In this document: positions 4,368-27,688 of the stretch, in pieces
Layout: each line of letters starts with the position of its first letter
Position numbering within the stretch: the first letter of the stretch is position 1
Made by a program: the position numbers and the translations under genes
NCBI GenBank assembly: GCA_017482355.1
Contig: JAFUNJ010000001.1
Span: forward strand, 2,888 to 66,887
Length of the DNA stretch: 64,000 bases
DNA from: Clostridia bacterium
GTDB lineage: Bacteria; Bacillota; Clostridia; Oscillospirales; CAG-272
Reading direction: 5' to 3'
Notes under the pieces: generated by a model
Database searches by the model: none
Told to the model about the DNA's origin: nothing
What the model saw: the letters and a program-made list of their open reading frames with translations, nothing else

Positions 4368-4550
4368 GTGAATATATCGGATACTCCGACAAAGCAAAAA
4401 CTGTCTATTCCCTTACGACTGCCGCCCGATATCTATGAGCAAATGATGGAAGTCGTACAGAAGAAAAAGAAAAAAGAGCGCGGATATAGCGTTAATCAGT
4501 ATTTGACCGAAATACTCATGAGGGATTTGGAGGAGAAAAACAATGGCTAA
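4368..4550 (+). CDS. ribbon-helix-helix (Arc-like) DNA-binding protein, putative R-M controller
   Basis: GGAGG RBS and GTG start; IPLRLPPDIYEQM...SVNQYLTEIL is the Arc/RHH pattern; overlaps the methylase start. Confidence 0.7.
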   Translation: MNISDTPTKQKLSIPLRLPPDIYEQMMEVVQKKKKKERGYSVNQYLTEILMRDLEEKNNG

Positions 4551-6459: not shown

Positions 6460-7504
6460 ATTAAAATGGGATGTTTTCACGCTTGAAAAAGAGTTCAATT
6501 GTACAAAAGGTATATACTTGCCAACAGAAACGGTTGTTGATGGTAATATTCCTTTCATAACCGCCAAAGCAGGTAACAACGGATTGAGTCGTTTTATCGG
6601 AAATAAGACTTTATTTGAGGGCAATTGTATCACAATTGAAAAAATAAAATTGAGTGCTTATTATCAGCCCGCAACATTTTATTGTTCACACGATGTCAGT
6701 GTAATCTCCAATGAAAAAATCAATGCACAAAATGCACATTTTATAACGGCCATGATTATGCGAAACGGAGAAAAGTATTCATATGGTCGTCAAGCGCAGT
6801 TAAATGTTGTTAAACGAGAAAAAACCATGTTGCCTGTTGAAGAAAACGGTAGTATCGACTATCAATATATGACTGACTATGTGACTGTATCTCGCAAGAC
6901 AATGTACGTCAAATATCGTTCGTTCGCAGAAAAACGCATTGAAGAAATCGGTGAGCATGTGCAATTATCACCGTTCGCCTCTCTTGATTGGCATCCGTTT
7001 TATATAACAAGCGTATTCACCAAAATTGAACGCGGAAAGCGATTGAAGAAAGCAGATCACATATCAGGAAATGTCCCCTATGTATCCTCTACTGCATTAA
7101 ACAACGGTGTTGACGGTTTTATACAAGCATCAAAAGGAACACGTGTTTTCAACGATTGCATAAGTCTTGCAAATAGCGGAAGCGTAGGTTCTGCGTTTTA
7201 CGAACCGTTTGAATTTGTTGCCAGTGATCACGTAACGCATTTGAAAACGGACGGATTTAATAAATGGATATACCTATTTCTTACGGTTGCGATAGAAAAG
7301 CAAAAAAGCAATTTTAATTTTAACCGTGAAATTAATGATTCGCGTGTCAGACAAATGAAGATAATGCTTCCCGTAGATTCTGAAAATAGACCGGATTTCA
7401 AGTATATGGAACAGTATGCTAAAAATATGATGCTCAAAAAATATAAGCAATATCTTGCATTTCTTGATGCAAAAGAAAATGACGATAGCGCACCGATTTC
7501 GTAG
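6434..7504 (+). CDS. restriction-modification specificity (S) subunit, BcgIB-like
   Basis: Two TRD-like halves (GNIPFITAKAGNNG / GNVPYVSSTALNNG; MLPV...DYQYM / MLPV...DFKYME); overlaps the RM gene; the true start may be GTG 6443. Confidence 0.85.
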   Translation: MMIVKKINELKWDVFTLEKEFNCTKGIYLPTETVVDGNIPFITAKAGNNGLSRFIGNKTLFEGNCITIEKIKLSAYYQPATFYCSHDVSVISNEKINAQNAHFITAMIMRNGEKYSYGRQAQLNVVKREKTMLPVEENGSIDYQYMTDYVTVSRKTMYVKYRSFAEKRIEEIGEHVQLSPFASLDWHPFYITSVFTKIERGKRLKKADHISGNVPYVSSTALNNGVDGFIQASKGTRVFNDCISLANSGSVGSAFYEPFEFVASDHVTHLKTDGFNKWIYLFLTVAIEKQKSNFNFNREINDSRVRQMKIMLPVDSENRPDFKYMEQYAKNMMLKKYKQYLAFLDAKENDDSAPIS

Positions 7505-10521: not shown

Positions 10522-12528
10522 TTATTCAATGATCAGCGTTACGCAGGACATCATGGGAAGCTTCGCGTTAACGGTGAGCTTTCCGTCTTCAAGGGTGAAC
10601 GGGACTTCCTTTGTTATTCCGTCGTGACCGATCTCGGACATCTTATTCACGTTCAGCCCCTTTGTATCGAGGACAATGCTGTTGAAATCGTCGAGCAACG
10701 CGTTCGTTACCATAATGTGCGTCTGATCTTCTTCGGCGTAGAGATAGGGATAAATACCCGTATACTCGCTTATCGCGACCTTGCCCGAGTGCTTAAGAAC
10801 GAAGTCCTTTATCAGTAGACGGCGAAGCTCGCAGAACTGGTTGTCATGCTTGTTGTCGACCATGTAGGGAAGAACGAGGAAATTATTTCCCTCGGCAAAT
10901 CCGTTTGCGGTTATCTCGCCGCTTGCGGAATATACCTTGGTAAGCACCTTAACGCCCGAATTTTCGCCATACGAGGCATCAAAGTAGCGTCCCATTTCGC
11001 CTCTGATCGTAGAACGGTAGCCATTGATTCCGAGGATCTTGCGGTTTTCTGCGAGCATTTCGTATGCGTAGGTCGGAGTTTCGAGAGGGATCTCATGAAC
11101 ACTCTCCGCGCCGATGAGGTAACTAAGACCGCGCTCGCAAAGGATTGACGCGACCGAGCCGTCGAGAATGACAGAGTTGTTTTCGAAAATATCTATGATC
11201 TCCTTGTCCGTGAAGCAGTGAACGCTATCCGAGAGGAGCGCTATGGTCTCGTTACGGTAACGGCGCTCGCTCGAATACTTAAAGGACAATCCGAGGGAAG
11301 CGATGTATGCGCCAGCTTGGAAAAGAGATGTCGTAAGATCACCGAAGCCGTTTTTTATGTCGAGCTTGTAGCAAACGTCCTCAAACACGGGAACGGTCAC
11401 GCCCGAAAGGGATGAGAAGCGAATGTTTCGATCCCTGACTGCGTTAAGATACGGGTCAAGACGCTTGACCTCTTTACCGTAGCCAAGCTCCTCAACTGCT
11501 CCGTTTCCGCAGAAGCCGTTTATACTGTACGTCATTCCGTCAAGAACGAGCGGAAGCGAGCCCTCCATGTGGAAACGGAGGTATCTTGGGCTCTTGCGCA
11601 TCATATTCGGCGTTCCGTTTTCGACCTCGGGCCATACCTTCGTGTCGTCTCCCGAGAAGTGTCTAATTGCCATGCTGACACGGTTAAAGTTATGTATGTA
11701 GGTTTTGCCCATGGTTTCAAGATATGAGGGCAGATGTATACGGTTCAGCTTGTCTCCGCCCTGCGCAAGTGCGCCGAGCAGACCGTTCCAGTCTCTTGCC
11801 TCTATGCAGTGGTTTTCGGGAGAGGACGACATAAGAGCCACCTCGGTTTTTGGCGACGCTGCCTTGATTGCTTTCGTTATGCGCTCCGCAAGGTCGACAA
11901 TACTCCTTCTTTCGGTGTCGAGCCATACCTTTCTCTCGCGCGTCGGCTTGCCGGGCGCGAACGCACGCTGAACGAACTCTTCACGGGTGTAGGACGTGCC
12001 GAGAATGCTGTTGAAGAGCGCAATATGCTTTTCGCAGAAGCAGCCGCCGAAGGTGAGCGGCGCGTGGTTGTGATAGCGGAAATCGTCCTCTATCCAGAAA
12101 TAATCCGGCTCAAGCTCACGCACGAGGAAGCTTGCGTATTCACAGAAATAATCCTGCCATTCGGTGTCGATTGGACATGCAACAAGCTCGTCGCGCAGAC
12201 CGTTATAGTCGACCATCGTAGTGAAATTCTGCCCCGGCTTGAGCTTTCTTCCTCTTGCGAGGTGTCCCATTTCGATCCAGTTGTTCACGCTAACGCAAAT
12301 GCCTGCGTCAAGAAGTGCCTCTCTTACGCCCTTAAGCTTTTCGACCCAAGGGGTTGCCTCCTCTATCGTGATGTGACCGAAGTTAAATTCCTCGGCGTTT
12401 ATCATCAGCATTACGTCGTTGAATCCGTACTTCTTGCAAAAGTCGATAAGGACCTCGGTTCTCTCCTCTATGAGAGAGTCGGGAAAAAGCTGGATTCTCA
12501 GCGAATGAACGAATTTATCCTTTTTCAT
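10522..12528 (-). CDS. putative glycoside-hydrolase-like TIM-barrel protein
   Basis: ACP...WQDY, WIEDDFR and GGCFCEKH resemble GH42-like catalytic barrels; the family cannot be assigned by eye. Confidence 0.55.
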   Translation of the reverse strand: MKKDKFVHSLRIQLFPDSLIEERTEVLIDFCKKYGFNDVMLMINAEEFNFGHITIEEATPWVEKLKGVREALLDAGICVSVNNWIEMGHLARGRKLKPGQNFTTMVDYNGLRDELVACPIDTEWQDYFCEYASFLVRELEPDYFWIEDDFRYHNHAPLTFGGCFCEKHIALFNSILGTSYTREEFVQRAFAPGKPTRERKVWLDTERRSIVDLAERITKAIKAASPKTEVALMSSSPENHCIEARDWNGLLGALAQGGDKLNRIHLPSYLETMGKTYIHNFNRVSMAIRHFSGDDTKVWPEVENGTPNMMRKSPRYLRFHMEGSLPLVLDGMTYSINGFCGNGAVEELGYGKEVKRLDPYLNAVRDRNIRFSSLSGVTVPVFEDVCYKLDIKNGFGDLTTSLFQAGAYIASLGLSFKYSSERRYRNETIALLSDSVHCFTDKEIIDIFENNSVILDGSVASILCERGLSYLIGAESVHEIPLETPTYAYEMLAENRKILGINGYRSTIRGEMGRYFDASYGENSGVKVLTKVYSASGEITANGFAEGNNFLVLPYMVDNKHDNQFCELRRLLIKDFVLKHSGKVAISEYTGIYPYLYAEEDQTHIMVTNALLDDFNSIVLDTKGLNVNKMSEIGHDGITKEVPFTLEDGKLTVNAKLPMMSCVTLIIE

Positions 12529-12689
12529 ACTGTTTCTTCTTTCGTTAAACTGTTTTTTATGTCGCTATTATAACATAGACGCGCGGACAAATCAATAGAC
12601 TGTGTAAGCGGTTTTGAAAACGGGTATTGAAAAAAACTAAAAAAAGCGTTATAATGAAAGCACAGTTTAAAGAAAACGAGGATAATATT

Positions 12690-13247
12690 ATGCGTAAGAA
12701 TTTTGGCGCGAAAACCTGGCTCTACCCGATGCCCGTACTCATTATCGGTACCTACGATAAAAGCGGAATCCCGAACGCGATGAACGCGGCGTGGGGCGGA
12801 ATATACGATACGAATCAGGTCATGGTCTGCCTTGCCGACGACCATAAGACAACGGATAATATCAAGAAAAACGGTGCGTTCACGGTAAGCTTCGCAACGG
12901 CGAACACCGTCGTCCCCTGTGACTACGTCGGTATCGTCTCGGCAAACGACATTCCCGACAAGCTGAATAAGGCAGGGTTCACGACGTTTAAGAGCGAATT
13001 CGTCAACGCGCCGATCATTAACGAGCTGCCGATGACGGTAGAATGTAAGCTTCTGAAGTTCAACGAGGACGGTATCTGTATAGGAGAGATAGTCAACGTC
13101 TCCGCTGACGAAAGCATCCTTGACGCAAACGGCAAGGTCGACGCGAAAAAGCTCGACCCTATCATTTACGATAGCGTTACCCACGCATATTGGAGCTTCG
13201 GCACGAAGGTCGGTCAGGCGTTTTTCGACGGAAAGAAGATGAAGTAA
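12690..13247 (+). CDS. flavin reductase / flavoredoxin family protein
   Basis: LYPMPVLIIGTYD...NAMNAAWGG and CDYVGIVS; start set at ATG 12690 after a GAGG RBS. Confidence 0.85.
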   Translation: MRKNFGAKTWLYPMPVLIIGTYDKSGIPNAMNAAWGGIYDTNQVMVCLADDHKTTDNIKKNGAFTVSFATANTVVPCDYVGIVSANDIPDKLNKAGFTTFKSEFVNAPIINELPMTVECKLLKFNEDGICIGEIVNVSADESILDANGKVDAKKLDPIIYDSVTHAYWSFGTKVGQAFFDGKKMK

Positions 13248-15396: not shown

Positions 15397-15425
15397 TTGA
15401 CAACAACGAAAGGTTGTGATACAAT
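15397..15425 (+). promoter_or_regulatory. sigma-A promoter of the cohesin-dockerin operon
   Basis: TTGACA (15397-15402), 17 bp, TACAAT (15420-15425). Confidence 0.7.
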
Positions 15426-15598: not shown

Positions 15599-16843
15599 AT
15601 GAAAAAGAGAATTCTGTTTACTTTAATTTTTTCCCTTCTGCTCTCGGTGTTTTTGAGCATCAGCGCCCTTGCGGCACAGCACGGAACGCTCTCACTTTCC
15701 GCGTCAGGTGCGGTGAAAGCGGGCGATACGGTCACCCTCTCGGTGAAGCTGACGGGGGCTGAAAGCATAGACGGTATTGCCGTCACCCCTATCTACGACG
15801 AGACGAAGTTTGAATTGACGGGAGGTTCCTGGAAGGTCAACGGTGTCATCACCGATTTCAGCGTAGATACCAAGGACGGAGTTATTGCCTTTGCAGAGGG
15901 AACGGCTGTCAATACCACTATCCTTACCTTCACACTTAAGGTGAAAAGCGGAGTCGAGGCAGGAGCTTATACGGTTGGTTGTTCGGCAGAGGTAAGCAGT
16001 ACAGATAAAGCGAAATCCACCCTCAATGCCGAAACGCAGGTGAAGGTCAGCTGCTCGCACAGCTTTACGGTAAAGAATACCGATTCCAAATATCTGAAGA
16101 GCGCCGCGACCTGCAGCTCTGCGGCGACCTATTACTATAGCTGTAGCAAGTGCGGCGAGAAGGGAACGACCACCTTCAAGTCCGGCTCGGCACTGACGCA
16201 CACCTTTGATCAGAAGAATACGGCGGAAAAATACATTCATACCGCAGGCACTTGTACCAAGGCGGCAGTCTACTATTACAGCTGTAAATGCGGCTCAAAG
16301 GGAAGCGAGACCTTTGTAGGTGCCGATCCCGACCATCGCTACGCGGAGACGTGGAGTACAGATAAGGATAATCACTGGCTCGAGTGCTCTGCTTGCGGCG
16401 AACGCAAGGATCAGGCAGCTCACGTTCCCGGTCCCGAAGCCACTGAGGACAGCGCACAGGTCTGCACTGCTTGTGGTTACGAGATCGCCCCTGCAATTGC
16501 CCATCAGCACGATTTTACAAAGCATTGGTACAGCGACGACGCGACCCACTGGGGTAAGTGCGGTTGTGAGGAAGAAAGTCAGCCGACCGCACACACCTGG
16601 GATAATGGAAAGGTCGTCAGTGAACCTACTGCAAAAAAGCAGGGCGCCGTCGTCTACACCTGTACAGACTGCGGCAGAACCAAGCTTGAATATACCGATC
16701 CCGATCCCTCAAAGAGCGATCGAACCTCTTCCGAAAAGGACGGTGACGGCTCCTTTGGCATCGGCGCTTTAGTCGGAGTGCTGGGCGGAATCTTAGTCGG
16801 TGCTGTCGGAGTATATCTGACGCTTGTAAAGCGTAAAAAGTAA
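15599..16843 (+). CDS. membrane-anchored single-cohesin protein with Cys/His-repeat stalk
   Basis: Signal peptide; cohesin-like segment VKAGDTVTLSVKL...YDETKFEL...GVIAFA...ILTFTLKVKSGVEAGAYTV; CxxC/His repeats; C-terminal TM helix plus KRKK. Confidence 0.75.
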   Translation: MKKRILFTLIFSLLLSVFLSISALAAQHGTLSLSASGAVKAGDTVTLSVKLTGAESIDGIAVTPIYDETKFELTGGSWKVNGVITDFSVDTKDGVIAFAEGTAVNTTILTFTLKVKSGVEAGAYTVGCSAEVSSTDKAKSTLNAETQVKVSCSHSFTVKNTDSKYLKSAATCSSAATYYYSCSKCGEKGTTTFKSGSALTHTFDQKNTAEKYIHTAGTCTKAAVYYYSCKCGSKGSETFVGADPDHRYAETWSTDKDNHWLECSACGERKDQAAHVPGPEATEDSAQVCTACGYEIAPAIAHQHDFTKHWYSDDATHWGKCGCEEESQPTAHTWDNGKVVSEPTAKKQGAVVYTCTDCGRTKLEYTDPDPSKSDRTSSEKDGDGSFGIGALVGVLGGILVGAVGVYLTLVKRKK

Positions 16844-16886
16844 ACCGATCTCCTTTATTACATAAGACACATAAGAGGTGACTTTC

Positions 16887-19800
16887 GTGAAACAGATACG
16901 AATTTGGAGTATCTTTTTAGTGATTTCAATGCTGTTGCAGTTTGGCGCGGGGGCGTTCCCCGTGTCTGCCACCGACGGTAATGAAGAGACACATATACAT
17001 TCCGAGGAGGAGAATTTACAGTCTTCTCTATCCGATTCTTCTGCTTCTGAGGCGGGCGATACGGACGGCGACGGCGACGTGGACGTTGCCGACGCAGTAT
17101 ATCTGTTGCGTCACGTGCTGAAGCCGCAGGATTATCCCGTAACCGCGGAGAGCGATATGGACGGCGACGAGGATACAGACGTTGCCGATGCTGTTTATCT
17201 GCTCCGCCATACGCTGATGCCGAGCAAGTATCCGCTTAAGGTACATGCTCACATTGTCGTCAATCAGCAGGCGGTGGCGGCTACCTGTACCCGTTCGGGT
17301 CTGACTGCCGGCAGCTACTGCTCGGATTGCGGCGAGATCCTTGAAGCACAGAAGGTGCTTCCTCCCAAGGGACATACTTCAGAGGTGGTCGAGGAGATAT
17401 CTGCCGACTGTACTCAGGACGGTATGGTGAAGGCGCACTGTGACGTTTGCGATACTGATTTTCTCAGCGAGCTGACCTACGCAAAGGGTCACGATTACGG
17501 TCAGGAGCAGATACAGACCGAGGCAACGTGTACGACAGACGGTATTTCGCTCTACGTCTGTGCAGAGTGCGGTCACAGTGAATCTGCGGTCGTACCCGCA
17601 AAGGGACATACCCTTATCGCTTCGGGAACTACCGAAAACGGAACCGTGATCTATACCTGTACCGATTGCGGCCTTGAAACTCAGGACAGCAGTACGGTCG
17701 ATTCGCACAAGGAAGATCACGCTTTTGGCTGTGACAAGAATTTTACTTTCGATATTATTTATGACGGCGACGAGGAGTACATCCGCGATCATCTTTTGAT
17801 CAGCGACGCCTATTACGTTGATCCTACTACCGAAGAGCGCCTTCCCTATGATCTCGAATATAAAGGGGATGGCAGATGGACGGTCAGCCCGTCTGAGGAT
17901 TACGAGGGCGGCAATACCTATTGCGCTAAGATAGACGGAGATCTGAAATTTGCAGATTACGAGTCGGAGGAGCTCTATTTTTCGATTGCCGACGATGTTC
18001 ACAGCGATATTACGCTTTCCGACGGCATTATATTTATTCCCATGCCTGCGATCGGTACCGTTGACCGTCAGCAGTATCTCTTGGAGACCAATACCGATAA
18101 CGAATTTTTCTATCTCACTATGCCGGATGACGGCACGCTGAGTCAGGAGCACGTCGGTCGTATCGTCTGTGCCGGTGCGTATAAGAGCATGGACGAGTTC
18201 ACAGCCGATAACTCCAAGGAGTGCTACTTCGGTAAGCTCGAAAAGCTTTATGCTACCGCAGACGGAAAGATCCTTTTGGTGCTCAGCTGTCCTGAGCTTT
18301 ACGAGATCTACTCCGAGCTTGATATTTACGAAAACTACATAGTAGAGCTTACGGAAGAGGATATACCCGAGGATATTTCGGAGCAGGCGGTATACGCGCT
18401 TCGACACAGCGACGACTTCGGTGAATTCGTCACCGGTATCACGCTGGCGGCAAAAGCTTATGCCGATGGCATAGGTGCGACTGCGGTCGGTGTAGATGAC
18501 CTCAGCTTTTTGGATGATATGGGACTGATACCCTCGTTCAAGATCGAAAACGACAACAAGCTGATCGTTTCGATTCAGGGTAACTTGCCCATCAAGCTCA
18601 AAAATAAAGAGGGCAAGGATTGTGGTACCGTTACCGTTTCCTTCCTCACAAAGGCGGAGTATTCCTTCACAGTGACGGGTGCTTGCGAGCTAAAGTATTT
18701 CTTAGGTATCCCCACAGGCGTGAAGAAGTTTGACTTCAATGTGACTCAAACCTCTTCATATACGCTGGAATTTTCCGTTAAGGTAGCTATTGATCCCCTT
18801 TCCAAGCCGGAGGGAAAATCTATTGTAAAAACTCCTCTGGGTGTTTACCACCTGAAGGACTGTCTGACCATTTCAGCATTCCCTAAGGGCTCGCTTACTG
18901 CTGTGACAAATGATCAGATGGACGAGGCATACCGTAATTCCGACGGTTCGGTCGATTTGGATTGCCCCGTTTGCAACCCCACGATGTCCTATCTGAAAAA
19001 GAACGTGTATGTTGCGAACAAGGATACTGAAACTATCCATCGCTTCGTATGTGCAGAGAGCGACAGAGTTGATGCGACCAACGTAGAAGTACTGGAATCA
19101 ATTCCTCTTGTTATGGACTACACGCTCTGCGAGACATGTCTTCAGGGTAAGTCAAACACGGAGGAGCAGAACTTTGAAGAAATGCTGGTAGACGCGCTTC
19201 GCTATCAGAATTGGAGCGATATTGCCTCTAGCGTAAAAAAGGCGCTTACCAAGAGCGATAAGCCCGCAGAAAAGGAATCCGAATTTACCCTGATGAAGTT
19301 GCCGATCCCCTTCGCAGGCATTTTCCAGCTGACACTGGAAGCCGAGATGGTGATCAGCTTCAAGTTCTCGGGAAGTGTATCGCTGACTTATACGAATTCC
19401 ACCACCACAGTTGCGGGTGTGCGTCTTAATTCAAGCAACACTCTGGAGCCGTACTCCTCACGCACGATGACCGAGAAAAATACGACCTTTAAGGTTGCGG
19501 GCGGTCTTGACGTGAAAGCGGGTATCCGCTTCCAGATGAACGTCGGCATGAGAGGATTCCTCTCCAAGTTCATCTATATCAAGCTGGGCGCAGAGGTCGG
19601 CACCTACTCGGACCTTGACGGTATTCTGTTCGCAGAGGGCACGGTAACGGAAGAAGGCGGTCAGACCGATAAGACAAGCTCCGCCTTTATAGCTGCCTAC
19701 TGGGAGATGGGTCTGTACGGCGATATCTTCTTTGATTACAAGGTAGTATTCTGGGGAAATAAGTTCTCCCTTTTGGGCAGTGACAAGCGTTTGCCGATTT

Positions 19801-22800
19801 TGGCTTTCGGTTATGACAAGGTATATTACGGCTACAGTCCCGATGCTGAGCTGATAGAGGCGACCGGGCACAGTATAGATCTGACGTCTCATTCTATTCT
19901 TATCGCAAACGCCTTTGACGTTAAGAAGCTCTCCTCCTCAAAGGAGACGCTGAATATACTCGGAGTCAAGAACGAATATGACGTAATAATAGCCGTTTTG
20001 GATGAAAACGGAGATCCAAGTCCTTATTGCACCGTTCAAAACGGCGTGATCACCATACGTGACGATGCGCCGTGCGACCTTACCCTTACCGTTGTGATCA
20101 AGGTGAACGGTAATAATGATGCAGTAGATACCGTAGCAGATTTCTTCAAGAACGGATATACTGTCGGAGACGATCTGTACAAACTTCCCGAATATAAGTT
20201 CTATATCCACGTTACCGACCATTCTATAAGCGAATGGGAGGAATACGAGGCGCCTACCTGTACCGAGGACGGAACCGATTGGCGGTACTCCACCTGCGAT
20301 TGCTCTGAGGAGGAGTTCCGCGTTGTTTCGGCGCTCGGACATCAGGAAGTGATCGACCACGCATATCCCGCTACCTGTACCGAGGACGGCGCGACCGAGG
20401 GCTCGCATTGCGAACGCTGCGGCGAGGTTCTGATCGCTCAGGAGATCCTGTACGCATTCGGACATTCTTATACAGATGAATTCACCTGCCACGACCGTCC
20501 CTGCCAAAACGATGGTTGTACCCACGTAGAGGTGGCTACCACGGAGCACCGTTACAGCGATTGGATAGACGTACCTATGGGCGAATGCGCTCTGCAGGAT
20601 TATCACGTCCGCTACTGCATTGACTGCCGACATTCTACGACTGATCTCGGCACGGACGTTCCCGTACAGCACATGCACGACATCGGTATCCCCGAGGTGG
20701 TCTACCCGACCTGTACCGAGGACGGTTACGTAATCATTCAATGTACGCGTTGCGGAGAAGAGCTGAAAAACGATGTTCTGATAAAAACAGGTCATGATCT
20801 GGGAGATTACCTCATAACAAACGGCGGACATTATCAGAAGTGTTTGAATAATGGTTGTGATTATCAAACCGATGTTGAAGCGCACGAATTTGACCACGAC
20901 TGCGATACCGACTGTAACGAATGCGGCTTTACTCGCGTCACCTCTCACGTTATGAAGACCGAGTATAGCAAGGATGGCAGCAATCACTGGTTAGAATGTG
21001 ATATATGCGGCTTTGACGGCGAAAAGGAAGCCCACAGCTATAAGGCAAACTGTGTTATCTGTGATGTCTGCGCTTACCTAGGCGGTGGCTCACATAGCTG
21101 GAGTGACGTTTATAACAGCGACGACGGCTATCATTGGCTTGTCTGTGGGGAGTGCGGCGTTAACGGCACTCAGAGCGCACATACCTACGAGGATGACTGC
21201 ACGCTTTGCGATATATGTGACCGCGCAAGCGGAAAGAGCCACAGCTGGAGCGAGGACTATGAGCAGAATGGAAGCCATCACTGGCGCGCATGTAAGAATT
21301 GCAGTCAGACCGATGCAAAGGATGCTCACAGCTATTCCTTGTCCGAGCCCATACATCTTGCAACCAAGGCAACCTGTCAGAATGCGGCGACCTACTATTA
21401 CTACTGCGTATGCGGTAAGCTCGGAAGCGACACCTTCTCCTACGGAGAGGTTGCTGAGCATAGCTGGAACACCGACTATACGGAAGACGGCGACCGACAC
21501 TACCGTAGCTGTAAATACGGCTGCGGAAGCGTGATAGATGAGGGAGCTCACAGCTACGGCGATTATAAGGTAACAAAGAACGCTACCTGTGCCGAGACCG
21601 GGACAGAGACCCGTTATTGCACGCTTTGCGATAGCTCCGATAGCAGAGAGATACCTAAGAAGGATCACGCCTACGGAGACGATTATGAGCACGACGATGT
21701 CAGCCATTGGATCGAGTGCGGCTCCTGCGGAGAAAAGAAGGATCAGGACTTCCACCGTCTGGGCGACGATCTGATCTGCGACGTTTGCGGCTATGAAACT
21801 ACGGCAGAGCACGATTGGGATCCCGTCTACCGTTTCGATGACCAAAAGCACTGGCTTGTCTGCCTAGACTGCGGCATTATCACAGGTGAGCAGGCACATC
21901 AGTTTACAAATGACTGCGACACCGACTGCTCGATATGTGATTATACACGTACCACGGAGCACGAATGGAACGCAAGCTATTCGAATGACTCTACTGCACA
22001 CTGGATCGAGTGTGGCGAGTGCGGAGAGAAAAAGGATCGCGGCGATCATGTATATGATCACTCTTGCGATACCGACTGTAATATTTGCGGTAAGACCCGT
22101 AATATCACTCATGAATGGGGTACTGAGTACAGCAAGGATTCCGGCGGACATTGGCGCGTTTGTACTGTCTGCGGTGAAGAAGAGACAAAGACCGCTCATA
22201 TCGGCGGATCAGCTACCTGTACCGAAGCGCCTATATGTACGACCTGTAAATCCGCCTATGGATCTGCAAACGGTCACGATTACAGTGGTGAGATGCTGTA
22301 TGACGATACCCATCACTACAAGCTCTGTGAGAACGGATGCGGTACAGAGACCGCAAGAGAAGTGCATAAATTCGGCGATTATCAGGTGGTTTTGACTGCT
22401 ACCTGTACACGAGTTGGTGAGAAAAGACGTTACTGCGCGGACTGCTCGGCAAGTGAGACCAGGGATATTCCCATGACCGAGCATGATTGGAGTGATACTT
22501 GGCAGAAGGACGATACCTATCACTGGGTAGAGTGTAATGACTGCGGTCTTAACGGCGAAAAGCGTGTCCACGTCTGGGATAACGCTTGCGATACTGACTG
22601 TAACGAATGCGGTAAGGTGCGCACCGTTACTCATCAGTGGAAGGTCGACTACGCATCAGACGAAAGCAGTCATTGGCAGATCTGCGAGAACTGCGGTGCT
22701 ACCGGTGATCCTTCCGATCACGTCTGGGACAATTCCTGTGATACGGAATGTAACGAATGCGGTAAGACGCGTACCGTACAGCATCAGTGGGGCCTTAATT

Positions 22801-25409
22801 ATCAGACCGACGACGAAAAGCATTGGTACGAATGCGAGATCTGTCACGAAAGACAGGGCGAGGGCGCTCACGTGGACGGCATGGCAACCTGTACCGAGCG
22901 CGCAATCTGCGCGATCTGTCATCAGCCATACGGAACGACTACGGATCATAGCTACTCAATGCGTGTAGAAAACAGTGATTACCTCAAGCAAGCCGCCACC
23001 TGCGAGGGAGAGGGCATTTACTACTTCTCCTGCGTCTGCGGCGAAAAGGGTACTGCTACCTTTACGGTGGCTGCTCTCGGTCACGACTGGAGCACGCAAT
23101 ACAACTCTGACGGCACCTATCACTGGCTGGATTGCAGCCGTTGCTCCGAAACGGATGGCAAATCCGTTCACTCGGGCGGAAACGCTACCTGCCAAGATAA
23201 GGCGGTCTGTACGACCTGCGGCAAGGCATACGGTGACTTCGGAGATCACGACTACAGCGTGAAGAATAATGAGTATAAGGCGTCTGATGCGACCTGCGAG
23301 AGCCCTGCTTATTATTACTATACCTGCTCATGCTGCGGAAAAGCGGGAAATACCACATATGCGGTAGGCAATTCTCTCGGACACAGCTGGAGCAATAAAT
23401 ATACCGTCACCGACAGCAATCATTATTATGAATGTCTCAACGGTTGCGGCGATCACCTTTCGGAGGGTGTGCATACCTACGGTGATTATCTCCAAACGAC
23501 TGCGCCGACATGTACCTCAAAGGGCGAAGAGAAGCGCACCTGTACAGCTTGCGGTCATGAGCAGTATCGCGAAGTCGAAATGCTTCCTCACGAGATGTCC
23601 GATGAGGAGGAGATAGTAACCGACATTGTCGAGGGAGACGGGGAATATCTGTATATCCATAATATCGTCTTCCGTTGTAAGAATTGCGACTACTATGAAG
23701 TTCAGTCAACCTCAACTGCACATATTCATGAAGCAGTGGATTATATCCTCGGTACGCCTCCGACCTGTACCGAAAACGGCTTGACCAGCGGCGTAATTTG
23801 TGCCGTCGCGGGCTGCGGTGAGGTTCGCATAGCGCAAGAGACAATAGACGCACTCGGACACGATTACGTCGAGGGCATCTGCTCGCGTTGCGGAGAACGC
23901 GAGGAATACTATTCCAAGGGACTTGAATACGAGCTCAGCAGCGACGGAACATACTATATCGTGACGGAAATCGGTACTTGTACCGATACCGAGCTTGTTA
24001 TTCCTTCCTCCTATAACGGAAAACCCGTTAAGGAAATCGGAACATCGGCGTTCTACGGAGCGAATATGTTTACAAGCGTGACTATCCCCGAAAACATAAC
24101 TAAGATAGGAGATAATGCATTCGGCTATTGTACAAATTTGGAAAGGCTATACATCAATTCTATAGAATTGGAGGATTTGACTTATTCAAGTGATGCTTTT
24201 TACTATGCCGGACGAGATTCCGGAGGATTTTCGGTAACATTTGGTGCTTCGGTTACTAAGATTCCCAACAACTTGTTCTATTCGTATTATGACTATACAA
24301 ATCAAATCTATTTTGTCAATCTGAAGGAGGTTGTGTTCGAAGAGAACAGCTCCTGCAAGCGTATAGGTGACGGCGCATTCCGTTTCTGCGCAGGATTGAC
24401 TCAGATTGAATTGCCGGAGGGACTACAGTATATCGGCGCAAGTGCCTTTGCAGATTGTTATAATCTGATAGACGTAACAATGTATGATGAAGTCCTTGAG
24501 ATCGGTGTCCGCGCATTTTCGTGCTGTGCATTCCAAAGTATACGGCTCAGCAACAATCTGACGACTATAGGCGATTATGCATTTGAATCCTGCGACTATC
24601 TGGTCAGCGTTGTCATTCCCGACAGTGTTAAGTATTTGGGCGATGCTGTGTTCTACTACAGTATTTCTCTCAAGGAGATCACTATCGGAAAGGGCGTTCT
24701 GGATTTAGGAGAAAGCTTGCTTTGGTACTGCGAAGCACTTGAAGTGATAATATACAATGCAACCAATGCTAACGATTTTGAAAATGATCTGTGTAAGCCA
24801 ATCATATATATTACCGGAAATTCAGGTAACGGTATTGAGCTGATCGTTGGCGCTAACGTGCAGAGGATTCCTGCCAATTTGTGTAATGACGAAGGACGCT
24901 CGAATCTGGTTAAACTAACATTTGCAAGCGGCAGTGTTTGCCAAGAAATCGGAGACGATGCGTTTTCTTATTGTGAAAAGCTGACCGCGGTTACACTCGG
25001 TTCATGCTTGACACGCATCGGCGAAAGAGCATTTTTGTGGTGTACTTCTTTGACTTCCATTAAGATTCCAAACAGTTTGACTACCATATCCACGGAAGCA
25101 TTCGCTTGCAGCGGACTTCAAACCGTTACGCTTGGCAGCGGCTTGAAGACGATCGATTTCTGTGCATTCGGTTATTGTGAAAGTCTAAAGTCGATCACTA
25201 TTCCCGCCAGCGTGAATTACATTGGAGCATATGCTTTTGACAATTGTGTTTCGCTTAAGACGATCACGTTCTCGGGAAGCGCACCTGAAATGGATTACGA
25301 GCCGTTCTGCCGAGTTACAGCAACGGTCTATTACCCGAGAAGTAATAGCACTTGGACTGCTGAGGTTAAGGAGTATTGCGGCGGCACCCTCACCTGGATA
25401 GCAAAATAA
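16887..25409 (+). CDS. giant secreted dockerin protein with Cys/His-repeat stalk and C-terminal BspA-type LRRs
   Basis: GAGGTG RBS then GTG 16887; signal peptide; duplicated dockerin DTDGDGDVDVADAVYLLRH / DMDGDEDTDVADAVYLLRH; many ATCTxxG, HWxxCxxCG and CDTDCNxCG repeats; LRR_5 repeats from ~23950; no C-terminal anchor. Confidence 0.85.
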   Translation: MKQIRIWSIFLVISMLLQFGAGAFPVSATDGNEETHIHSEEENLQSSLSDSSASEAGDTDGDGDVDVADAVYLLRHVLKPQDYPVTAESDMDGDEDTDVADAVYLLRHTLMPSKYPLKVHAHIVVNQQAVAATCTRSGLTAGSYCSDCGEILEAQKVLPPKGHTSEVVEEISADCTQDGMVKAHCDVCDTDFLSELTYAKGHDYGQEQIQTEATCTTDGISLYVCAECGHSESAVVPAKGHTLIASGTTENGTVIYTCTDCGLETQDSSTVDSHKEDHAFGCDKNFTFDIIYDGDEEYIRDHLLISDAYYVDPTTEERLPYDLEYKGDGRWTVSPSEDYEGGNTYCAKIDGDLKFADYESEELYFSIADDVHSDITLSDGIIFIPMPAIGTVDRQQYLLETNTDNEFFYLTMPDDGTLSQEHVGRIVCAGAYKSMDEFTADNSKECYFGKLEKLYATADGKILLVLSCPELYEIYSELDIYENYIVELTEEDIPEDISEQAVYALRHSDDFGEFVTGITLAAKAYADGIGATAVGVDDLSFLDDMGLIPSFKIENDNKLIVSIQGNLPIKLKNKEGKDCGTVTVSFLTKAEYSFTVTGACELKYFLGIPTGVKKFDFNVTQTSSYTLEFSVKVAIDPLSKPEGKSIVKTPLGVYHLKDCLTISAFPKGSLTAVTNDQMDEAYRNSDGSVDLDCPVCNPTMSYLKKNVYVANKDTETIHRFVCAESDRVDATNVEVLESIPLVMDYTLCETCLQGKSNTEEQNFEEMLVDALRYQNWSDIASSVKKALTKSDKPAEKESEFTLMKLPIPFAGIFQLTLEAEMVISFKFSGSVSLTYTNSTTTVAGVRLNSSNTLEPYSSRTMTEKNTTFKVAGGLDVKAGIRFQMNVGMRGFLSKFIYIKLGAEVGTYSDLDGILFAEGTVTEEGGQTDKTSSAFIAAYWEMGLYGDIFFDYKVVFWGNKFSLLGSDKRLPILAFGYDKVYYGYSPDAELIEATGHSIDLTSHSILIANAFDVKKLSSSKETLNILGVKNEYDVIIAVLDENGDPSPYCTVQNGVITIRDDAPCDLTLTVVIKVNGNNDAVDTVADFFKNGYTVGDDLYKLPEYKFYIHVTDHSISEWEEYEAPTCTEDGTDWRYSTCDCSEEEFRVVSALGHQEVIDHAYPATCTEDGATEGSHCERCGEVLIAQEILYAFGHSYTDEFTCHDRPCQNDGCTHVEVATTEHRYSDWIDVPMGECALQDYHVRYCIDCRHSTTDLGTDVPVQHMHDIGIPEVVYPTCTEDGYVIIQCTRCGEELKNDVLIKTGHDLGDYLITNGGHYQKCLNNGCDYQTDVEAHEFDHDCDTDCNECGFTRVTSHVMKTEYSKDGSNHWLECDICGFDGEKEAHSYKANCVICDVCAYLGGGSHSWSDVYNSDDGYHWLVCGECGVNGTQSAHTYEDDCTLCDICDRASGKSHSWSEDYEQNGSHHWRACKNCSQTDAKDAHSYSLSEPIHLATKATCQNAATYYYYCVCGKLGSDTFSYGEVAEHSWNTDYTEDGDRHYRSCKYGCGSVIDEGAHSYGDYKVTKNATCAETGTETRYCTLCDSSDSREIPKKDHAYGDDYEHDDVSHWIECGSCGEKKDQDFHRLGDDLICDVCGYETTAEHDWDPVYRFDDQKHWLVCLDCGIITGEQAHQFTNDCDTDCSICDYTRTTEHEWNASYSNDSTAHWIECGECGEKKDRGDHVYDHSCDTDCNICGKTRNITHEWGTEYSKDSGGHWRVCTVCGEEETKTAHIGGSATCTEAPICTTCKSAYGSANGHDYSGEMLYDDTHHYKLCENGCGTETAREVHKFGDYQVVLTATCTRVGEKRRYCADCSASETRDIPMTEHDWSDTWQKDDTYHWVECNDCGLNGEKRVHVWDNACDTDCNECGKVRTVTHQWKVDYASDESSHWQICENCGATGDPSDHVWDNSCDTECNECGKTRTVQHQWGLNYQTDDEKHWYECEICHERQGEGAHVDGMATCTERAICAICHQPYGTTTDHSYSMRVENSDYLKQAATCEGEGIYYFSCVCGEKGTATFTVAALGHDWSTQYNSDGTYHWLDCSRCSETDGKSVHSGGNATCQDKAVCTTCGKAYGDFGDHDYSVKNNEYKASDATCESPAYYYYTCSCCGKAGNTTYAVGNSLGHSWSNKYTVTDSNHYYECLNGCGDHLSEGVHTYGDYLQTTAPTCTSKGEEKRTCTACGHEQYREVEMLPHEMSDEEEIVTDIVEGDGEYLYIHNIVFRCKNCDYYEVQSTSTAHIHEAVDYILGTPPTCTENGLTSGVICAVAGCGEVRIAQETIDALGHDYVEGICSRCGEREEYYSKGLEYELSSDGTYYIVTEIGTCTDTELVIPSSYNGKPVKEIGTSAFYGANMFTSVTIPENITKIGDNAFGYCTNLERLYINSIELEDLTYSSDAFYYAGRDSGGFSVTFGASVTKIPNNLFYSYYDYTNQIYFVNLKEVVFEENSSCKRIGDGAFRFCAGLTQIELPEGLQYIGASAFADCYNLIDVTMYDEVLEIGVRAFSCCAFQSIRLSNNLTTIGDYAFESCDYLVSVVIPDSVKYLGDAVFYYSISLKEITIGKGVLDLGESLLWYCEALEVIIYNATNANDFENDLCKPIIYITGNSGNGIELIVGANVQRIPANLCNDEGRSNLVKLTFASGSVCQEIGDDAFSYCEKLTAVTLGSCLTRIGERAFLWCTSLTSIKIPNSLTTISTEAFACSGLQTVTLGSGLKTIDFCAFGYCESLKSITIPASVNYIGAYAFDNCVSLKTITFSGSAPEMDYEPFCRVTATVYYPRSNSTWTAEVKEYCGGTLTWIAK

Positions 25410-25420
25410 CCCCTTAAAAC

Positions 25421-25453
25421 CAAAAGAGACGGGAAAACTTCCCGTCTCTTTTT
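25421..25453 (+). terminator. intrinsic terminator of the cohesin-dockerin operon
   Basis: AAAAGAGACGGGAA-AAC-TTCCCGTCTCTTTTT. Confidence 0.8.
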
Positions 25454-25550: not shown

Positions 25551-26084
25551 ATGGACAGACGGCAGAAAAAGACGCGAAGGGCGATACTTGCTTCCTTCCG
25601 TGCGCTTCTTGAAAAGAAGCGATACGAGCATATAACCGTTCAGGAAATAATCGACGGCGCCGATGTCGGCAGGAGCACATTTTACTCGCATTTTGAGACG
25701 AAGGATATGCTTCTCGACGCGCTTGCAGGCGAGATATTCCAGCACATTTTTGAGGACGATCCCTGTCCTTGGGTCGGCAAGGACGGTGAGCTCGAGGGTA
25801 AGCTCTCGCATATCCTCTGGCATATTCGCGCCGAAAGGGAAAACCTCGCAGGCGTTCTGCTCTCCGACAGCGGCGAGCTGTTTATGGGCTATTTCAAAAA
25901 CCATCTCAAAGCCGTCTTTACCCAATATATTGATAACTTCACACAAGACGTTCCGCGCGGATTTCTGATCGAATATCTTTCGGGAAGCTTCGCTGAGACT
26001 GTGCGATGGTGGATAAAAGAGGGGATGAAAACGTCGCCCGAGGACGTTGCAAAATATTTTATGGGAATGGTGAACAGAAAATGA
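25551..26084 (+). CDS. TetR/AcrR family transcriptional regulator
   Basis: MDRRQKKTR...ITVQEIIDGADVGRSTFYSHF HTH. Confidence 0.9.
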   Translation: MDRRQKKTRRAILASFRALLEKKRYEHITVQEIIDGADVGRSTFYSHFETKDMLLDALAGEIFQHIFEDDPCPWVGKDGELEGKLSHILWHIRAERENLAGVLLSDSGELFMGYFKNHLKAVFTQYIDNFTQDVPRGFLIEYLSGSFAETVRWWIKEGMKTSPEDVAKYFMGMVNRK

Positions 26085-27688
26085 AGGTAAGTGTTATTCA
26101 GCCGTATTATTCCTTTGACGAAAAGGATATAGATTCCTGCTATGAGGGAATGTTCGATCTGCTTGACAAGTGTGATGAGAGTAACGATATAATCGTTCTC
26201 CCCGAATATTGCGACATTCCCGCCGCGACGAAGGGCGGAGAATCCTTCCGCGCTTCGATAGAGACGAGAAACAAGGACGTTTTTGAGCGCGTGAAAGCCG
26301 CCGCTATCCGCTGTAACGCGATAGTTTTTGCGAACTTCGCTGACAAGACCGAGACTGGCTATCGCAATACGACCTTTGCCTTTGACAGGTCGGGCAACGT
26401 CGTCGGAAAATACTATAAGGCACATCCTGCGCCGAGTGAGGTCAAAATTCTGAGTGAGGGCGGCAACGGCGTTGACGTTTCCTATTCCTATACGGCGGAC
26501 GAGCCGTACGTAATTGAGATCGAGGGCATACGCTTCGGCTTTATGACCTGCTACGATTTCTATTTCTATGAGGAGTTCGCACAGCTCGCAAGATACGATG
26601 TCGATATTATAATCGGCTGCTCTCATCAGCGCACAGATACTCACCGTGCACTCGAAATAATAAACAGCTTCCTTTCCTATCATACGAACGCATATCTGCT
26701 TCGCTCGTCGGTCTCTCTCGGTGAGGACAGCCCGATCTGCGGCTGCTCGACTGTTATCGCGCCTGACGGAAATATTCTAGTCGATATGAAGAGCAAGGTC
26801 GGCATCGGCACTTGTGAAATAGATCCGAAGAATAAATATTACAAGCCGGCGGGCTTCAAGGGCAAGATGAAGTCGCACTACGAATATATCGAGGAAGGAC
26901 GCCGTCCGTGGCTCTACCGAAACGGCGGAAAGAGCGTCGTTCCGTTTGACAGATATATGCCTTATCCGCGCCTCTGTGCGCACCGCGGCTTCAGCTCGGC
27001 GCTTCCCGAAAACACGATGGTGTCGTTCGGTGCCGCTATCGCGCTCGGAGCGTCGGAAATTGAATTTGACCTTTGGGTAACTAAGGACGGCGAGCTTGTT
27101 TCCTGCCACGACGCAACGCTTGACCGCGTTTCAAACGGTAGCGGATATGTATGGGAAAAGACACTTGACGAGCTTAAAACGCTCGATTTCGGTGTCAAAT
27201 ACGGTGAAAAATACCAAGGTCTAAAAATTGCTACCTTCGAGGAGATACTCGCAAAATTCGCTTCGCAGACGGTAATGAATATCCACTATAAGCCAGATAC
27301 TATGTCCGACGAAACGCTCGACAAGATAGTCAAGCTTCTTCACAAGTACGACTGCGACAAGCACGTCTACCTTATGATAACGAGCGACGAGGTCATAAGA
27401 AAGGTTAAGTCGCTCCGCCCCGAAATGAAGATCTGTGTGGGTGAGGACGGCAGTTACCGCATAGTTGACCGCGCGATAGAGCTCGGCTGCGAAATGGTGC
27501 AGATCTTTACGCCCGACGGAAAGAATATTAATAAGGAAATGATAGACCGCGCGCACGCGCACGGAATCAACGTCAACGTCTTCTATTCCGACTCGGTCGA
27601 TTTTGCAAGAGAGCTTCTCGATATGGGAGCCGACACGATACTTACGAACGAATATCTGAAGCTTTCGGGCGCGCTTGGAATAAAATAA
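26081..27688 (+). CDS. carbon-nitrogen hydrolase / glycerophosphodiester phosphodiesterase fusion protein
   Basis: Nitrilase triad LPEY, YYKAH, TCYD; GDPD motifs AHRG, PENT, EFD, CHD; ATGA overlap with tetR. Confidence 0.85.
   Translation: MKVSVIQPYYSFDEKDIDSCYEGMFDLLDKCDESNDIIVLPEYCDIPAATKGGESFRASIETRNKDVFERVKAAAIRCNAIVFANFADKTETGYRNTTFAFDRSGNVVGKYYKAHPAPSEVKILSEGGNGVDVSYSYTADEPYVIEIEGIRFGFMTCYDFYFYEEFAQLARYDVDIIIGCSHQRTDTHRALEIINSFLSYHTNAYLLRSSVSLGEDSPICGCSTVIAPDGNILVDMKSKVGIGTCEIDPKNKYYKPAGFKGKMKSHYEYIEEGRRPWLYRNGGKSVVPFDRYMPYPRLCAHRGFSSALPENTMVSFGAAIALGASEIEFDLWVTKDGELVSCHDATLDRVSNGSGYVWEKTLDELKTLDFGVKYGEKYQGLKIATFEEILAKFASQTVMNIHYKPDTMSDETLDKIVKLLHKYDCDKHVYLMITSDEVIRKVKSLRPEMKICVGEDGSYRIVDRAIELGCEMVQIFTPDGKNINKEMIDRAHAHGINVNVFYSDSVDFARELLDMGADTILTNEYLKLSGALGIK

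Follow-up and report, generated by a model that had tools for sequence, protein, structure and literature searches.

How is a secreted protein of 2,840 amino acids held at the cell surface when it has no recognisable membrane or wall anchor of its own? The question is raised by two adjacent genes at positions 15,599 to 25,409 of a 64,000-nucleotide stretch (hereafter the window, whose numbering is used throughout) of contig JAFUNJ010000001.1 from an uncultured Clostridia bacterium of the gut, placed in the CAG-272 lineage of the order Oscillospirales. The source genome comprises 1.69 Mb in 22 contigs and is 77.5% complete. The answer considered likely here is that the two genes form a surface-display operon, in which gene 1 encodes a cohesin-bearing post in the membrane and gene 2 a giant protein with a leucine-rich repeat (LRR) head, plugged into that post by a dockerin. 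A first model-made reading of the sequence (the initial annotation) had proposed such a tether, and both open reading frames (ORFs) were found where it had placed them:

15599..16843, + strand: gene 1, membrane-anchored protein with a single cohesin, 414 amino acids (ORF and full-length homologues of the same layout)
16887..25409, + strand: gene 2, secreted protein of 2,840 amino acids with dockerin, module, rod and LRR head (ORF, ribosome-binding site and orthologue P0124)

Gene 1 shows the claimed succession of signal peptide, cohesin, stalk rich in cysteine and histidine (Cys/His stalk), transmembrane (TM) helix and KRKK tail when its sequence is read:

15599..15673, + strand: signal peptide, residues 1-25, ending in ALA and followed by A (sequence reading)
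15677..16057, + strand: cohesin domain, residues 27-153 (Pfam, AF2, Foldseek, VIA and profile A3)
16058..16714, + strand: Cys/His stalk, residues 154-372, about six small modules with CCCH or HCCH quartets (alignment A1 and AF2)
16715..16843, + strand: acidic/Ser linker 373-385, TM helix 386-410, KRKK tail 411-414 and stop (sequence)

Full-length homologues of the same layout range in identity from 91% down to about 40%. Alignment A1, which has 11 rows made up of gene 1 and full-length homologues, has A25 and A26 as invariant residues at the end of the signal peptide, and the hydrophobic stretch with its basic tail is retained in 10 of the 11 rows. No LPXTG, the C-terminal motif of a sortase anchor of the ScaE type, was seen on reading the tail of gene 1 (...SSEKDGDGSFGIGALVGVLGGILVGAVGVYLTLVKRKK), and no C-terminal sorting-domain model was found in it among the NCBIfam models at E<=0.1.

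The N-terminal domain of gene 1 had been called a cohesin, which is borne out by family and fold together. The Pfam Cohesin family (PF00963) reaches 31.9 bits (cut-off 24.1) over residues 31-146 (nucleotides 15689-16036) in the protein scan and 34.6 bits in a six-frame search of the genome. The AlphaFold2 (AF2) model of gene 1 from the 11-row alignment has a mean predicted local distance difference test score (pLDDT) of 82.8, with about 90-95 over residues 30-150, and cohesins are its top matches in the PDB by Foldseek (2vo8 with a TM-score of 0.74, 5m2o with 0.72 and 2jh2 with 0.71). A VIA search of 48,161 solved representative chains places cohesins at every one of ranks 1-14, with Z 12.9-14.5, a root-mean-square deviation of 2.3-3.8 and 124-135 residues aligned; ScaE (2zf9) has Z 11.7 in the same search. 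Pilin and Ig-like domains come close behind the cohesins, from Z 11.9, which speaks against the assignment, and the fold alone would not settle it because the margin is about one Z unit. Profile A3, built on the cohesin only, matches 6kgc at E 6.5e-4 and ScaE 4iu2 at E 5.8e-3 among solved structures. Since the Pfam score and these profile matches add to the fold ranking, the domain is accepted as a cohesin and not merely as a generic Ig fold.

The elements of gene 2 follow one another from a ribosome-binding site to a C-terminal LRR head, and its residue numbers are counted here from the listed start, GTG 16878:

16873..16881, + strand: ribosome-binding site AAGAGGTGA of gene 2 (sequence)
16887..16970, + strand: signal peptide with MKQIR, hydrophobic core and VSA (sequence; same layout in P0124, P0125 and P0126)
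17052..17228, + strand: dockerin of two calcium-loop and helix segments, DVADAVYLLRH in each (Pfam, profile A2 and sequence)
17268..17729, + strand: four N-proximal Cys modules of the TCx(6-10)CxxC...H type (11 Cys, 7 His and 4 CxxC in 154 amino acids)
17730..20252, + strand: conserved module of about 800 amino acids, residues 285-1125 (family of 172 representative clusters)
20253..23912, + strand: Cys/His rod of 1,220 amino acids (103 Cys, 73 His, 31 CxxC, 11 HWxxCxxC and 5 CxTDCxxC modules)
23913..25409, + strand: BspA-type LRR_5 head, conserved C-terminal tail and stop (Pfam PF13306 and profile A5)

An in-frame GTG at 16887 lies six bases after AAGAGGTGA, and P0124, a gene 2 orthologue of 60% identity, starts with MKKIRIL at the residue matching this codon. 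The start was set at 16887 because the spacing and the start of P0124 agree; it appears the likelier one by sequence and gives the length of 2,840 amino acids.

A Ser/Glu-rich linker separates the VSA of the gene 2 signal peptide from the dockerin, whose two 12-residue calcium loops, DTDGDGDVDVAD and DMDGDEDTDVAD, both lead into AVYLLRH. Asp or Asn at loop positions 1, 3, 5, 9 and 12 with a helix thereafter is found twice and can be aligned with five relatives. Profile A2, made of the window dockerin and these five relatives (six sequences), matches solved dockerins with E 7e-11 (4fl4), 2e-10 (1daq) and further values up to 1e-8, whereas EF hands of the calmodulin type are matched only from E 2e-3. 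An N-terminal dockerin was also part of the initial annotation, as was the identical 11-mer DVADAVYLLRH in both halves, which is present at residues 69 and 101. The halves are identical at 20 of 29 residues and at just 61 of 87 bases, and are therefore not the result of a recent duplication of DNA. By analogy with characterised dockerins, the near-identical helices would be the sequence feature that accompanies a dual binding mode; symmetric dockerins are discussed in PMC5301203, and the PDB entries 2vn5 and 2vn6 in the Foldseek listing have titles in line with such a mode.

At the other end of gene 2, the LRR_5 family (PF13306) scores 258.2 bits against a cut-off of 27.7, in three stretches within the C-terminal 500 residues, which agrees with the BspA-type head claimed for this protein. 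The head part of profile A5 (30 sequences) matches the solved LRR_5 proteins 4gt6 (E 1.5e-64) and PcpA 4cp6 (E 7e-23). Gene 2 has neither an LPxTG nor, beyond residue 40, any uncharged 19-mer, and no enzyme family was found in it with Pfam, with NCBIfam or with the 30-sequence profile against PDB sequences; the absence of an anchor of its own and of a recognisable catalytic family had been noted correctly. Other LRR_5 proteins are encoded in the genome: one lies at window 3-1115 on the - strand and runs off the window start, and another, at L005 12505-13314, has 269 amino acids with a C-terminal TM helix and basic tail and is thus directly anchored.

That the two genes form an operon with its own promoter and terminator, as was claimed, is consistent with the signals at its ends:

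15397..15425, + strand: promoter-like site, TTGACA-17 nt-TACAAT with a TG extension (11 of 12 consensus positions; a consensus match only)
25422..25452, + strand: intrinsic terminator hairpin followed by a T tract (-20.4 kcal/mol, z -6.26)

The promoter-like site sits about 170 nucleotides upstream of gene 1, and the stability of the terminator hairpin was matched by none of 200 shuffles. The scan gave no terminator-like site on the + strand between gene 1 and gene 2. No RNA sequencing runs containing the stretch are listed, and three DNA runs from one gut-metagenome study contain it and may be where it comes from.

A prediction of the complex, with cohesin residues 27-153 from A1 against dockerin alignment A2, gave 0.17 and 0.11 (mark 0.32) with controls absent, and because it gave no verdict the case for the pairing rests on comparative evidence. 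This begins in the genome itself, where six-frame Pfam searches show two cohesin and two dockerin places that form two adjacent pairs. The second pair is found at C5:180101-183238 (L005 6102-9239) in the opposite gene order to the window pair. It consists of a secreted protein of 392 amino acids with a cohesin-like N-domain, He_PIG and a C-terminal dockerin (27.3 bits) and, 12 bases downstream, a protein of 648 amino acids with cohesin, fn3, a Cys cluster, a TM helix and an Arg-rich tail. When hidden Markov models (HMMs) made for this study were run over all 10,014 ORFs of at least 60 amino acids in the genome, two weak matches were added, namely the N-domain of the 392-amino acid protein (A3 HMM, E 0.0017; DUF7927 is under its cut-off here) and the ORF C5:277121-278185 (E 0.03). 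Each of the two cohesin proteins of the genome has one clear cohesin. The two dockerin places, on gene 2 and on the He_PIG protein of 392 amino acids, do not make up a cellulosome or an amylosome, and no glycoside hydrolase (GH), PL or CE family was found on either dockerin protein of this 77.5%-complete genome.

Comparisons with other genomes show that the pairing of this cohesin type with a dockerin neighbour is conserved. With profile A3, the type was detected in 113 of the 401 sampled genomes of the order, in 64 of 178 genera. Six loci of named genomes in which the match covers the cohesin part were compared for synteny, and a dockerin gene lies directly beside the cohesin gene in five of them. 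Three of these dockerins are matched by Pfam at E<=2.4e-4 (L007 with 32.2 and L011 with 50.5 bits, both over the cut-off of 22.9, and L006 with 21.6, just under it), and those of L009 and L040 rest on the calcium-loop pattern only. The dockerin gene is downstream with an N-terminal dockerin in L006, L007 and L009, as in the window, and upstream with a C-terminal dockerin in L011 and L040. LRR_5 is found on the cargo in four of the six loci; the cargo in L040 is a transglutaminase-like protein.

A regional survey took the best-matching place from each of the 20 genomes that ranked highest; one of these places (L111) is on the same contig as L007. The same or a neighbouring ORF carries a dockerin in 17 of the 20 regions, and a separate dockerin ORF stands next to 8 of the 11 cohesin ORFs that have a C-terminal hydrophobic (TM) tail. 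The conserved adjacency in related genomes which the idea of a dedicated pair implied is thereby found in both samples. Among 16 neighbouring dockerin ORFs that were scanned, 7 have LRR_5 and the others have Flg_new, Big_2, Big_3, fn3, GDPD or nothing, and none has a glycoside hydrolase family. Three regions (L114, L122 and L123) hold chains of three genes, encoding a cargo with a C-terminal dockerin, a protein with both cohesin and dockerin, and a cohesin protein with a TM tail; the middle protein looks like an adaptor tier from its domains. A GDPD phosphodiesterase with a C-terminal dockerin adjoins the cohesin gene at L126 4828-7872.

The relatives of gene 2 offer a second line of comparison. 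The module of about 800 amino acids that follows the N-proximal Cys modules has a family of its own, with at least 172 representative clusters matched at E<=1e-3 and 121 at E<=1e-30. These are proteins of 1,100-4,500 amino acids, and in most of them the module starts 150-300 residues after the N-terminus. A census by simple patterns of 118 full-length module representatives gave an N-terminal dockerin in 10, a lipobox in 40, a long N-terminal hydrophobic helix in 42, a short hydrophobic stretch in 20 (several of them lipoboxes by eye) and none of these in 6 (several with cut gene calls). No C-terminal TM helix or LPxTG was found in the 118 representatives. It seems from these sequences that the N-terminus of the family always carries a device for holding the protein to the cell.

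A module tree was made with FastTree from 114 rows, that is the window and 113 proteins of at least 1,000 amino acids with an M start and at least 600 query residues covered. The 12 dockerin rows need at least eight changes on this tree and are sister to lipobox or TM rows with local support of 96-100, for example in the pairs P0273/P0262 and P0244/P0245. The dockerin thus seems, by the distribution of these patterns, to have repeatedly replaced a direct membrane anchor, and such interchange is what the dockerin as a tether predicts. P0273 has both a cohesin (42-151) and a dockerin (170-227) at the N-terminus ahead of the module. When the module was used as a single-protein query, it was found in 0 of 400 other genomes of the order and 0 of 398 in the class, a search that may overlook relatives because most are only 23-35% identical and could escape it. 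A metagenome scan with alignment A4 gave 198 pattern matches, none of which was confirmed.

The proposal that gene 1 tethers gene 2 is thus supported by the two adjacent pairs in the genome, by the conserved synteny and by the substitution of lipobox or TM anchors for the dockerin in relatives. In the likely arrangement, gene 1 would be a type I membrane protein fixed in the membrane by its C-terminal helix and KRKK, and its stalk of about six Cys/His modules would hold the single cohesin off the membrane, presumably through the wall. Gene 2 would be exported by Sec, and removal of the signal peptide would leave the dockerin close to the N-terminus, where it could plug into the gene 1 cohesin in the presence of calcium. 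The order outwards would then be the module of about 800 amino acids, the rod of about 1,220 amino acids with some 40 Cys/His modules, and the LRR_5 head. The head would in this way be placed far from the cell and may act as an adhesin, with a ligand that could be a glycoprotein of host or food origin, for example, or another microbe.

Both partners would be extended by the same kind of building block. The stalk of gene 1 and the rod of gene 2 are of the same module types (BLASTP E 1e-18, 29% identity over 200 residues), and 24 of the 75 conserved A1 columns (28 invariant and 47 nearly invariant) are Cys or His of the stalk. The AF2 model gives the stalk a pLDDT of mostly 83-95 with short beta hairpins, and the Foldseek and VIA matches of the gene 1 model fall on the cohesin domain and barely cover residues 154-372. 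The rod has Cys and His for about 44 sites of four ligands each, and TCx(6-10)CxxC units also occur several times in it. No Pfam or NCBIfam model matches the Cys/His modules at its cut-off. The 30 Atlas clusters nearest to the stalk have no common Pfam family, with zinc-finger families only at 0.87-0.89, which is a lead. Modules of these kinds (HWxxCxxC...H, CxTDCxxC...H and TCx(6-10)CxxC...H) are also found in proteins of many gut Clostridia, and by title the cultured ones with such modules include Ruminococcoides, Pseudoruminococcus, Coprococcus, Mediterraneibacter and Oribacterium. Judging from their ligand patterns, the modules probably bind zinc, and they may be expected to be rigid.

Several observations weigh against this arrangement, in addition to the closeness of pilin and Ig-like folds to the cohesin. 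The evidence for binding between the gene 1 cohesin and the gene 2 dockerin is indirect, and the role of LRR_5 heads as adhesins in gut Clostridia is presumed. The Pfam family Dockerin_1 (PF00404) scores 18.3 bits in the whole-protein scan of gene 2, under the cut-off of 22.9, and 24.9 bits, over that cut-off, in the six-frame search of the genome. The cohesin of L008 has no dockerin neighbour, and neither do those of L121, L127 and L129 (3 of the 20 surveyed regions), two of which are on short contigs or at contig ends. The genome may have further cohesins and dockerins beyond the 77.5% that is covered. Anchors were assigned by simple patterns and not by a trained signal-peptide predictor, and the tree was made by FastTree only; the direction and number of the swaps are approximate because the assignments rest on heuristics and the tree is a quick one. 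Finally, the module of about 800 amino acids is of no recognised fold, with a mean pLDDT of 52.9 for an AF2 model from a six-row alignment that is not usable as such, so an activity may be hidden in it.

This last point leads to the alternative that survives best, in which the tether is real and the cargo is a surface enzyme or an active machine, with the activity in the module and the LRRs aiming it. No other part of gene 2 is as widely conserved as the module; most of its 172 clusters match it as one stretch over all of the roughly 800 amino acids, and it has invariant Cys, His, Gly and Tyr columns. Dockerin cargoes elsewhere include the GDPD phosphodiesterase of L126 and the transglutaminase-like protein of L040. 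On the other hand, the module has no Pfam family at E<=0.05, and the module part of profile A5 gave no PDB sequence match better than E 0.08; with the module alone, the PDB search gave only a ribosomal protein at E 0.89. The low-confidence model consists mostly of very long beta hairpins with strands of about 30 residues, which looks structural as far as such a model goes. An Atlas look-up of the module had a best score of 0.80, to clusters partly carrying Flg_new, and is a lead only. The heads are exchanged in the way expected of binding proteins. In a scan of 27 module proteins, hand-picked among 150 listed, LRR_5 stands at the end in 21, C-type lectin occurs in 3 (one of which also carries LRR_5 and a ConA-like domain), Big_3 and DUF6273 in 1, and nothing was recognised in 3; no enzyme family was found in any of the 27. 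An enzymatic cargo is unlikely in the light of these results.

A second alternative accepts both domains and denies the pair: the gene 1 cohesin and the gene 2 dockerin would bind other partners, and the two genes would be adjacent through the common ancestry of their Cys/His modules. A common origin of parts of the two genes is plausible given the module types that the two proteins share, and candidate partners could be the C5 pair, proteins of the missing 22% of the genome or other cells. The C5 protein of 392 amino acids, with its cohesin-like domain and dockerin, might be an adaptor, and the cohesins of Ruminococcus bromii are described as promiscuous in PMC4611034. Against this, the adjacency is also seen where the cargo has no module of the HWxxCxxC type (for example L112, L120 and L128), and chance adjacency of only two cohesins and two dockerins in about 1,700 genes is very unlikely. 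Moreover, the C5 dockerin is matched by profile A2 at E 0.016 compared with 1e-35 for the window dockerin, and profile A3 does not match the cohesin of the 648-amino acid C5 protein at E<=10. Since cohesin and dockerin of the C5 pair are so unlike those of the window, the two pairs of the genome suggest two separate specificities. Other partners for the window pair are therefore less probable still than an enzymatic cargo.

It is very improbable that gene 2 keeps its N-terminal hydrophobic segment as an uncleaved signal anchor and that cohesin and dockerin form a lateral clasp between two membrane proteins: about 42 of the 118 relatives do have a long N-terminal hydrophobic helix like a signal anchor, and the gene 2 segment is fairly long with 24 uncharged residues, but gene 2, P0124, P0125, P0126 and P0252 combine a short core with AXA-type sites (VSA, ANA, VWA, VSA and VAA) and a polar linker, and the relatives of TM type have no AXA-type sites (by reading, with no trained predictor).

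The membrane post with its dockerin-plugged giant protein is accordingly preferred as an account of the locus, and its surroundings can be described briefly. Upstream of the operon there is a divergently oriented gene for a P-type ATPase and downstream of it one for TetR, and just beyond the TetR gene lies a gene for a fusion of CN_hydrolase and GDPD (window 26006-27688). Type I restriction-modification genes (N6_Mtase followed by the Methylase_S specificity subunit) are found at window 4543-7504, in a patch with a G+C content of 0.40 compared with about 0.49. Two adjoining ORFs of 668 and 219 amino acids at window 10522-13184 on the - strand have no Pfam family at E<=0.01.

Known systems show that the arrangement was given more novelty in the initial annotation than it has. 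Binding of LRR proteins that carry a dockerin to an anchored cohesin has already been demonstrated experimentally in R. bromii, where the dockerin protein CBL14720.1 has two LRR regions and binds cohesins including the anchored Sca2, and where the authors propose a general surface-anchoring role for the LRR-dockerin protein (PMC4611034). This amylosome system resembles the window in its LRR dockerin protein and its cell-anchored cohesin. It differs in that the R. bromii network is promiscuous, is shared with GH13 amylases and has a sortase anchor (PMC4611034), whereas the window has a dedicated operon, two dockerins found in the genome, a TM anchor and a cargo of 2,840 amino acids with a Cys/His rod.

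Another experimental precedent is ScaE of Ruminococcus flavefaciens, a sortase-anchored single cohesin that binds the X-dockerin of CttA in cellulose adhesion (PMC5301203); the two genes are in one sca cluster (PMC5301203, PMC7456326). In R. flavefaciens and R. champanellensis, ScaE and CttA likewise combine a single cohesin fixed to the cell with a non-catalytic binding protein borne by a dockerin. A sortase attaches ScaE to the cell wall at its LPXTG, in contrast to the TM helix and KRKK of gene 1, and CttA has a C-terminal X-module dockerin with insertions and carbohydrate-binding modules by which it binds cellulose, in contrast to the plain, symmetric N-terminal dockerin and LRR_5 head of gene 2. 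ScaE also carries a whole cellulosome, of which the window genome shows none. The dockerin proteins of R. flavefaciens FD-1 bear 28 LRR modules in total, with SIGN-LRR-Doc layouts (PMC2930009), and its group-4 dockerins are internally symmetric and bind ScaE (PMC5301203). Transglutaminase-like, peptidase and serpin dockerin proteins are also found in FD-1. The dockerins of these proteins are C-terminal, in a genome with more than 200 dockerins and many carbohydrate-active enzymes (CAZymes), whereas the dockerin of gene 2 is N-terminal.

Cohesin and dockerin also occur outside fibre degradation in the GH84/GH33 toxin complexes of Clostridium perfringens and in Archaeoglobus fulgidus, and both organisms contribute cohesins to the best structural matches of gene 1 (2vo8, 2w1n and 2jh2 from C. 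perfringens, 2xdh from A. fulgidus). In C. perfringens the modules link one secreted glycoside hydrolase with another and do not tie a cargo to a membrane anchor. Non-cellulosomal cohesin-dockerin modules have reportedly been surveyed by Peer et al. in 2009. The head of gene 2 shares its PF13306 repeats with BspA of Tannerella forsythia and PcpA of Streptococcus pneumoniae. Those proteins are anchored by a C-terminal sorting domain or choline-binding repeats of their own and not by a dockerin.

A TM-anchored cohesin paired with a BspA-type giant that has an N-terminal dockerin was not found in full-text searches of the literature. The locus is known in kind, in that non-enzymatic surface display by cohesin and dockerin already exists in Ruminococcus. 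It is distinct in its TM anchor in place of sortase or SLH, in the N-terminal dockerin, in the Cys/His modules for which there is no family model and in its dedicated operon; further differences are a cargo from a large family in which anchors and heads can be swapped and a genome without sign of a cellulosome or amylosome.

A broader proposal can be advanced tentatively, as possible and clearly less secure than the account of the locus itself. The cohesin-dockerin pairs of the order, whose gut Clostridia have small genomes, might mainly serve to plug giant adhesin-like proteins into membrane posts and not to degrade fibre or starch. Gene 2 might then represent a large modular family of surface fibres, new to description, in which an anchor (lipobox, signal-anchor helix or dockerin), an extracellular Cys/His rod, probably binding zinc, with a variable number of modules, and a head (LRR_5, C-type lectin or ConA-like) are freely exchanged on one module of about 800 amino acids with a fold not seen before.

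Current views are not overturned by this locus, which extends the Ruminococcus design to uncultured relatives and to a membrane-anchored form. With two genes, one cohesin and one dockerin, it is a minimal natural cohesin-dockerin plug for a non-enzymatic surface protein, and it may be an easy model for the way in which gut commensals mount very long adhesins and for the ligands of BspA-type LRR heads. The gain is otherwise comparative. A dockerin and a lipobox or TM anchor can take each other's place within one protein family, and the dockerin cargoes found beside this cohesin type in the order are mostly LRR or Ig-like proteins and not CAZymes. Both partners are in addition built of Cys/His modules that lie outside the public family libraries.

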